DNA from: a virus
Virus record (IMG/VR): IMGVR_UViG_3300013006_000023
Location: 1-64,000 of that record
Reading direction: 5' to 3' (one strand)
DNA: 64,000 nt
Below the pieces are notes generated by a model. That model was given only the letters and a program-made list of their open reading frames with translations, had not been told where the DNA came from and did no database searches. Below, piece by piece: positions 45,708-46,406 of the stretch; the first letter of the stretch is position 1, and each line of letters opens with the position of its first letter. Made by a program: the position numbers and the translations under genes.

Positions 45708-45716
45708 TAAGGAGGT
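45708..45716 (+). promoter_or_regulatory. perfect Shine-Dalgarno sequence
   Basis: TAAGGAGGT, 9 nt before ATT-TGT-GGA-ATA-TTT-GGA. Confidence 0.8.
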
Positions 45717-45725
45717 ATAAAATAT

Positions 45726-46406
45726 ATTTGTGGAATATTTGGAGCCAAAGAGTTTACAGAATACGTTAAACTCTATAATTTGAACAAGAACAGGGGCACC
45801 TTTTCTTATGGTGGGCTATTGATTGATAACAAGATGCATGCCATTATTAAGAGCGCTGGAAAAATGCAGCTTAGTAAGAAGCTTGATATTGAATATGGAA
45901 AGACAAGAAAACCCATAAATACTTTCAAATATTACCTTGGCCACACACAAGCACCAACATCCTCAGAGAGAAACTACACACCTAGGACGTCACATCCTTT
46001 CTCTTTCAAAGATTGGCATGTAGCTCACAACGGTGTGCTCACCAATTACAAGCAGCTTCGTGAACTACTACCCAAGAAATCCTATAATGCAGTTGATACA
46101 TCCGTTATACCGCCTCTTCTTGACCAAGCATACAAACAAACAAAAGACGAGATTACTGCTATCCGTCATGTGCTAGGCTCACTACAAGGCACATTTGGCC
46201 TATGGATTTATAATCATAAGACACACCACATATACATAGCGCGATCTGGTAGCACCATATATGCAGATTTCCTTACAAATAGTTTTTCTTCAATAAAACA
46301 AGATAATTTTCATGAACTTGAAGAGGGATTAATTTATCTCATAACACCAGAAGGTATAACATCTGTGGGTAAATTCATACCAAATTCACCTTTCTTCACT
46401 AAATGA
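45726..46406 (+). CDS. class II (Ntn) glutamine amidotransferase, ATT start
   Basis: Upstream in-frame extension gives (M)CGIFG...NKNRG..SYG; also LGHTQAPT, HPF, VAHNG, VDT. Confidence 0.85.
   Translation: MCGIFGAKEFTEYVKLYNLNKNRGTFSYGGLLIDNKMHAIIKSAGKMQLSKKLDIEYGKTRKPINTFKYYLGHTQAPTSSERNYTPRTSHPFSFKDWHVAHNGVLTNYKQLRELLPKKSYNAVDTSVIPPLLDQAYKQTKDEITAIRHVLGSLQGTFGLWIYNHKTHHIYIARSGSTIYADFLTNSFSSIKQDNFHELEEGLIYLITPEGITSVGKFIPNSPFFTK

Follow-up and report, generated by a model that had tools for sequence, protein, structure and literature searches.

An amidotransferase gene with a predicted AUU start behind an extended Shine-Dalgarno sequence in an uncultured T4-like phage

Conserved AUU start codons are known from infC, the gene of initiation factor IF3, and from pcnB. 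AUU is non-canonical for IF3 and is the target of infC autoregulation; for a phage hydrolase in E. coli it gives about 5% of the output of AUG, and AUU messages are poor competitors in the cold and under ppGpp (PMC5499595). Leaderless mRNAs require AUG, AUU and other near-cognates being ineffective on them, and their initiation is inhibited by IF3 (PMC8459731). Two further systems bear on the locus described here: in Flavobacterium the ribosomal protein bS21 controls access to the anti-Shine-Dalgarno (anti-SD) sequence (PMC9976891), and in phage 9g Gat-QueC together with DpdA makes dG+ (PMC6884629).

The locus lies in a 64-kb stretch of DNA (the window), which is the first part of a 107,651-bp IMG/VR virus record (G000) estimated to be 51% complete. 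Besides the genes treated below, the window encodes a family B DNA polymerase, UvsX/RecA, a DnaB-type helicase, gp32, a primase and SbcCD. Identity between the polymerase and its counterparts in T4-like cyanophages and Pelagibacter phage HTVC008M is only about 30%, which indicates a deep, uncultured T4-like lineage; the source is an uncultured freshwater T4-like phage. Judged from its sequence, the gat gene of this phage uses ATT, a weak start codon, preceded by a strong ribosome-binding site, and its relatives divide between this arrangement and a plain ATG.

The gat start region, its product and its neighbours

The start region is made up of the following elements.

45678 to 45705, plus strand: sigma-70-type promoter, TTGAAT-16 nt-TATAAT (10 of 12 matches in a consensus scan)
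45708 to 45716, plus strand: extended Shine-Dalgarno (SD) sequence TAAGGAGGT, a perfect complement to ACCUCCUUA (duplex -12.6 kcal/mol)
45717 to 45725, plus strand: SD-to-start spacer of 9 nt, A/T only, TATAAAATA-T, by sequence inspection
45726 to 45728, plus strand: ATT initiation codon of gat, read from the sequence and found as ATT in 39 of 39 distinct SD-bearing alleles
45729 to 45731, plus strand: Cys codon TGT, the N-terminal nucleophile after fMet removal (full-length homologs and structure alignment)
45726 to 46406, plus strand: gat, 226 codons, encoding a stand-alone class II (Ntn) glutamine amidotransferase-like protein (Pfam GATase_6 and GATase_7)
45780 to 45782, plus strand: TTG at which ORF callers open the gene, not the real gat start (TCA in the closest relative, L083)

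After the ATT the codons read TGT GGA ATA TTT GGA, and no stop interrupts the frame, which includes TTG 45780, before 46404-46406. Upstream it is closed by an in-frame stop, the TAA within TAAGGAGGT, and the stretch between this TAA and the ATT consists only of GGA GGT ATA AAA TAT, with no ATG, GTG or TTG. The absence of any other start in a frame that closes five codons upstream places initiation at ATT 45726. The mechanical ORF list opens the frame at TTG 45780 and gives a protein of 208 aa; that the ORF caller begins there and that the frame reaches back to ATT 45726, as the preliminary description had it, is borne out by the sequence and by that list. The same description held that initiation must be at the ATT, and we reach the same conclusion, there being no other start available and the Cys at position 2 being invariant and superposing on Cys1 of GlmS and PurF.

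The 9-mer TAAGGAGGT occurs once in the window on a scan of both strands. Shorter forms are common: AGGAGG occurs seven times, and AGGAGGT four times against 3.8 expected by chance. As the motif count is not above chance, the weight of the argument rests on the position of the SD and on its conservation. The earlier characterization of this element as the only perfect SD therefore stands for the 9-mer and fails for shorter matches, since 5-mer SDs with ATG occur elsewhere (79024, 56942). The leader and the 5' coding region of gat have no significant RNA fold (z = -0.4).

An AlphaFold model of Gat (32 homologs; pLDDT 92.3) has the four-layer alpha-beta-beta-alpha fold of Ntn hydrolases as modelled. 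It aligns with the glutaminase domain of GlmS (2j6h_A) with a Z score of 24.3 and an rmsd of 2.9 over 212 residues, and with PurF (1ecb_D) with a Z score of 23.0; a Foldseek search gave a TM score of 0.72. In both alignments residue 2 of the model, the Cys, falls on chain residue 1, the N-terminal nucleophile. Every full-length homolog carries the N-terminus MC[GSA][IV]F. H101-N102-G103 and D124 are invariant in the family and align with the HNG oxyanion motif of GlmS and with its D-T/S-E motif, which holds the Asp for the glutamine amino group. The motif GHTQAPTS has Gln where the AHTRWATH of GFAT has Arg (Arg73 of GlmS/PurF, which binds the glutamine carboxylate); the HMM alignment is ambiguous there, and an invariant R82 lies nearby. 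The Arg for the glutamine carboxylate seems to be replaced in Gat, within the limits of an ambiguous alignment of this stretch.

The position of the start has a consequence for annotation. Roughly a third of the Gat family entries (42 of the best 120 clusters in the protein database) are called without the catalytic Cys, 41 of them truncated and one extended through an Ile codon, so that the enzymes look truncated and inactive. These Cys-less clusters are the closest relatives of the query, and the truncated calls begin at many different positions. They arise because gene callers never try ATT as a start, and on comparison of the calls the Cys-less entries are systematic start mis-calls.

The neighbourhood of gat, and the more distant genes that bear on its function, are as follows.

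44038 to 44784, plus strand: QueC, 7-cyano-7-deazaguanine synthase family, 1 kb upstream of gat (Pfam QueC, E 6e-55)
44768 to 45676, minus strand: 302-aa gene divergent from gat, with TAAATA 7 nt before its ATG, sharing a 49-nt intergenic region with gat
46403 to 47077, plus strand: glycosyltransferase family 2-like gene (GT2; Pfam Glyco_tranf_2_5), its ATG overlapping the gat stop (ATGA)
48756 to 48965, plus strand: ribosomal protein bS21, 69 aa, 3 kb from gat (Pfam Ribosomal_S21, 39 bits, above the cut-off)
27139 to 27798, plus strand: FolE (above the Pfam cut-off; in 5 of 5 records, this one and four related)
25128 to 25820, minus strand: QueD (above the Pfam cut-off; in the same 5 of 5 records)
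22615 to 23400, minus strand: possible QueE-like candidate (weak Fer4_12 4Fe-4S match, below the cut-off)

The order QueC (plus strand), a fast-evolving gene of about 300 aa (minus strand), a short bidirectional intergenic region and gat (plus strand) is conserved across the family. QueC neighbours gat in all five related records tested and is likely its partner. The divergent 302-aa gene keeps its position and an N-terminus of the form MNxDxxLIFEAY, its identity among related loci being otherwise 18-22%; considered as a hidden DpdA, it gave no Pfam or PHROG match. The Pfam TGT model (DpdA) likewise has no match in the five records, which are 51-88% complete, and a phage DpdA can be too divergent for that model. 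The 4Fe-4S protein at 22615-23400 may be QueE. With FolE, QueD and QueC, and QueE as a weak candidate, the preQ0 pathway appears to be largely present in this phage, and the setting of gat looks like a 7-deazaguanine pathway in which Gat and QueC are split.

The stop of gat and the start of GT2 overlap as NTGA in 77 of 79 loci and as TAATG in the other two. This overlap means that GT2 translation is coupled to gat, so that initiation at gat also sets the ribosome supply of GT2, and so strict a coupling points to a joint role of the two proteins, perhaps in glycosylating a modified base. The bS21 gene farther downstream is translationally overlapped with the ORF that precedes it, and a homolog search with bS21 matched only the phage's own lineage. 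An identical bS21 protein also occurs on a contig of 228,968 bp, from which the full genome is probably about 229 kb.

ATT and ATG alleles among relatives

Two scans of viral contigs with an alignment query, the second returning mostly the same contigs, yielded about 86 gat loci with 69 distinct start regions. Scanning viral contigs with a protein query yielded a single partial gat locus; megablast of the gat locus against cultured phages gave no match, and tblastn gave distant matches only. The distinct start regions fall into three kinds.

ATT start: 39 distinct regions; SD:anti-SD duplex of -10.0 to -13.0 kcal/mol in 39 of 39; SD spacing 6-8 nt
ATG start: 28 distinct regions; duplex of -6.1 kcal/mol or weaker; TATAAT 6-9 nt before the ATG, which predicts a leaderless message
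ATG start with SD: 2 distinct regions; duplexes of -9.1 and -9.5 kcal/mol at off-optimal spacings of 10 and 14 nt

An association of start codon and ribosome-binding site is evident from these alleles. Alignment of the orthologs reveals a conserved non-ATG start with an SD, as the preliminary description had proposed to look for, with ATT and a strong SD together in all 39 distinct ATT alleles. The claim that a strong SD accompanies the weak codon also extends to the converse, the SD being lacking in 28 of the 30 ATG alleles. GTG, TTG, ATA and ATC are not found at the gat start position among the 69 distinct start regions. In the ATT relatives the Cys codon, TGY, directly follows the ATT. Gat appears, on these comparisons, to exist in two stable designs, one with a leaderless AUG and one with a leader that carries a near-perfect SD, optimally spaced, and AUU.

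The conservation is sharpest in the window's own clade, where the third base of the start codon is T in 26 of 26 distinct sequences. Third positions of codons 2, 3, 6 and 9 vary in this clade and the spacer between SD and ATT drifts widely, while GGAGG and all three bases of the ATT are fixed. Short-leader ATT alleles with unrelated spacers are also found at L076, L073/78/91, L080 and L118/127, and ATT and ATG alleles occur together in the same metagenomes. Mapped on a tree of 80 Gat proteins, changes of start codon number at least 5-6 and changes of SD at least four; three independent pairs co-change codon and SD and none shows the opposite, a number at which the sign test is not significant. 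One further protein, P0113, is a possible extra ATT case inside an ATG clade.

These alleles also bear on whether the ATT could be an assembly error or a private mutation of ATG, or whether the real start could be TTG 45780 with a Cys-less and inactive protein as the product. Gene callers do choose TTG 45780. That codon was considered as the start and rejected: it is not conserved, whereas the 18 residues before it are, and they make up the initial strand and helix of the Ntn fold. ATT-TGY with an SD occurs in 39 distinct sequences from many independent metagenomes. Among them is the closest relative, L083 (87% protein identity, from a separate metagenome), which reads AGGAGGT-N9-ATT-TGT and has TCA in place of the ORF caller's TTG. 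The prospect raised earlier, that close relatives would show ATG at this position, is contradicted by these relatives, including L083 from an independent assembly, which show ATT. We give an artefact or a decayed gene next to no credence.

Leaders, promoters and a homing endonuclease cassette

The two designs share a promoter. A block CTTGAATTATTTATTCT...TATAAT opens the gat intergenic region in both ATT and ATG relatives. In ATG alleles the -10 box is followed by 6-9 nt and then the ATG; in ATT alleles it is followed by 4-5 nt, AGGAGG, 8-10 nt and the ATT, so that these are in effect about 13 nt longer. For the window we predict that transcription begins around 45710-45713, on the 5' margin of the SD, and that the leader is about 13-16 nt long; should it begin 7 nt past the -10 box, the RNA may lack one or two bases from the 5' end of the SD. 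A leaderless message has its AUG no more than 1-2 nt from the transcript 5' end, and gat of the window is not of this kind, as its -10 box ends 20 nt before the ATT with the SD between. The ATG orthologs, with the -10 box 6-9 nt before the ATG, would be leaderless, as we infer from the spacing.

In the 107-kb record a -10 or late box ends 4-9 nt before the start in 50 of 117 ORF calls, against 3% of control ATGs, and a 5-mer SD is present at 6 of the 117. Outside gat this genome looks almost free of SDs and leaderless in design, and the preliminary description's phrase, an otherwise leaderless genome, is supported by these counts. The leaderless design covers both sigma-70-type and late-type (TAAATA) promoters. 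gat has the sole gene start in the record with an extended SD and also the sole one with a non-canonical codon. Strong SDs with ATG are found on other genes of these phages (G005 at 137850, G000 at 79024), and from these it follows that the host reads SDs and that the ATT is specific to gat and no rule of the host.

Two other candidates for an SD-associated start were rejected. An apparent second SD+ATT gene at 99481 in G000 is a leaderless ATG gene in which GGAGGT forms codons 2-3, and four AGGAGGTAGATT repeats in the related record G001 are not gene starts in any frame. G001, which is the record of locus L033, contains four tandem units of about 550 bp at 153764-155458 on the minus strand, each with a copy of CATAATAAGGAGGTAGATT. 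A phage tRNA reading AUU as initiator was also sought: G000 has no tRNA, and G001 has tRNA-Met(CAT) only, near 157.5 kb. No homolog of IF3 or of peptide deformylase was found in the five phage records.

We consider it probable that AUU is the start, that the near-perfect SD is required, and that selection maintains the pair as a leadered counterpart to leaderless AUG, with gat-GT2 output held low. gat would then be translated from the AUU at 45726 by ordinary SD-dependent 30S initiation, on a short-leader early transcript whose 5' end would be little more than the SD. Initiator tRNA would insert fMet, and deformylase and Met aminopeptidase would subsequently expose the Cys nucleophile. Leaderless first genes, which are nearly all of them in this lineage, would need a 5' AUG. 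In a leadered gat the combination of AUU and SD could serve to compensate dosage: were AUG to follow a perfect SD, too much of a free glutaminase-type protein and of its coupled glycosyltransferase would be made, AUU would lower the output of both, and the IF3 sensitivity of the codon would be incidental. A weaker SD with ATG, GTG or TTG would be a simpler route to such tuning, and the exclusive pairing of AUU with an extended SD hints at something more specific.

One alternative reading comes from a homing endonuclease cassette in relatives. At six loci (L055, L057, L068, L071, L075 and L077) a 244-aa GIY-YIG/NUMOD1 homing endonuclease (phrog_314, E 1e-34) is encoded by an inserted cassette with a promoter of its own, which has the truncated native -10 box on one side and the gat start on the other. 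Its coordinates, and those of a remnant, are as follows.

L068, 2223 to 2957, and L055, 2223 to 2957, minus strand: GIY-YIG endonuclease, cassette in the gat locus
L054, 2810 to 3000: internally deleted cassette remnant, both cassette ends kept and the endonuclease body deleted

The leader of the cassette, CAGGAGAGGAGGGTAACGCT-ATT, hardly differs among three Gat protein clades, and the coding sequence diverges straight after the ATT. From this pattern, part of the scatter of ATT alleles is due to lateral transfer of a module whose border falls at the start codon. The SD and ATT could accordingly be read as the footprint of the endonuclease, or as an allele immune to it, with ATT persisting through the endonuclease cycle and not for any benefit to gat. 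The placement of the endonuclease exactly between -10 box and start at the six loci, the shared leader across clades, the retention of cassette ends at L054 and the co-occurrence of ATT and ATG alleles in the same metagenomes are all consistent with such a legacy. Against it, the 49-nt intergenic region of the window holds only promoter, SD and spacer, with no GIY-YIG gene or remnant, and the same is true of its 33-member clade, whose native promoter is common with the ATG alleles and precedes about 13 additional nt that make up the SD and spacer; G000 and G001 contain no homolog of the endonuclease. Wide drift of the spacer between an unchanged SD and ATT implies that selection acted after an endonuclease, if there was one, had been lost. 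Insertion of the cassette into a pre-existing SD+ATT allele explains the common module equally well; the cassette may have captured such an allele or created it. As an account of why ATT persists, the endonuclease cycle seems to us unlikely.

A second alternative is regulatory. The preliminary description took the strong SD to offset a deliberately weak codon and proposed gat as a sensor of IF3 or of ribosome state that could switch base modification, an idea drawn from the known behaviour of AUU and IF3 in E. coli. In a broader form the extended SD and AUU would tie translation of gat-GT2 to the IF3:ribosome ratio, or to host versus phage bS21 on the 30S platform beside the anti-SD, and would time or gate base modification against the leaderless regulon. 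Its appeal lies in several features of the system. IF3 discriminates against AUU and also inhibits leaderless initiation (PMC8459731; PMC5499595), and repression by IF3 of another non-canonical start, the GTC of sigR, is reported as a regulatory device (PMC5472188). In Flavobacterium, ribosomes lacking bS21 affect only the one extended-SD gene (PMC9976891); here bS21 is encoded 3 kb downstream of gat and is present in 5 of 5 related records, and gat is the only extended-SD gene start in the 107-kb record. The exclusive use of AUU, never GUG or UUG, would also fit a codon-specific mechanism. However, bS21 is found in ATT-type and ATG-type phages alike, with no co-variation with start type, no IF3 homolog is present in the five records, and many related phages thrive with a plain leaderless ATG. 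The promoters are TTGACA/TATAAT-like and not of the Bacteroidota type, so that occlusion of the host anti-SD is not indicated. Of the two ribosomal inputs, the phage's bS21 may be a more concrete candidate for the relevant ribosome state than IF3. We regard a switch of this kind as distinctly doubtful. More doubtful again is the fuller version in which the single extended-SD/AUU start would leave gat-GT2 as the only translational unit to respond to the condition of the 30S platform (IF3 level, or bS21 from host or from phage), would thereby time the final DNA base modification step, and would have been captured and spread as a design by the homing endonuclease.

Dosage compensation for a leadered gat is simpler than the sensor reading and fits the same data.

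Significance and comparison with known systems

What is new, against the conserved AUU starts known before, is a phage enzyme family that alternates between a leaderless AUG and an extended-SD AUU, together with an endonuclease that carries the module. The switching of gat orthologs between these two states is natural evidence that leaderless initiation needs AUG and that there is a trade-off between the strength of the SD and that of the codon, and it turns the family into a natural experiment on the balancing of translation starts. With its leaderless genome and a bS21 gene, the phage is likewise a system in which to ask whether the state of IF3 or bS21 alters which messages are read. For evolution, the cassette provides a case of a homing endonuclease that carries a complete module of promoter, leader, SD and start codon.

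Among described elements, the cassette resembles the free-standing GIY-YIG (Seg-like) endonucleases of T4-type phages, in that related gat loci carry a GIY-YIG/NUMOD1 gene between two genes, common to divergent backgrounds, with the flanks carried along; it differs from them for the present phage in that neither the window nor the 107-kb record has one.

The enzymatic setting is closest to Gat-QueC of phage 9g and archaea, where a class II amidotransferase is partnered with QueC in a 7-deazaguanine gene set, and to Schizotequatrovirus Vibrio phages, which have a separate Gat, annotated as a nucleophile aminohydrolase, adjacent to QueC. The window Gat and that of Vibrio phage 1.081.O have an HxQAPTS motif in common at 31% identity. 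In contrast to both systems, a divergent gene here separates Gat from QueC, and Gat is coupled to a GT2-like gene; and whereas the Vibrio phage Gat starts at ATG-TGC overlapping the QueC stop, the window gat starts at ATT behind an SD.

With rpsU (bS21) of Flavobacterium johnsoniae the locus has in common one unusually long SD in a genome that avoids SDs, and a bS21 gene in the system (PMC9976891). The difference is that rpsU autoregulates via bS21-free ribosomes, whereas here the SD gene is that of an enzyme, its start is AUU, and the promoters are not Bacteroidota-like.

The nearest counterparts for the start itself are infC and pcnB of E. coli, in which the AUU start is likewise conserved, has an SD before it and no canonical codon to replace it, and belongs to the class that IF3 discriminates against (PMC5499595). 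In gat, too, the AUU is conserved among orthologs with no canonical alternative, in 39 distinct alleles. The product of gat, however, is not an initiation factor, so that there is no autoregulatory loop of the infC kind, and gat is a phage gene whose AUU-started orthologs alternate with leaderless AUG.
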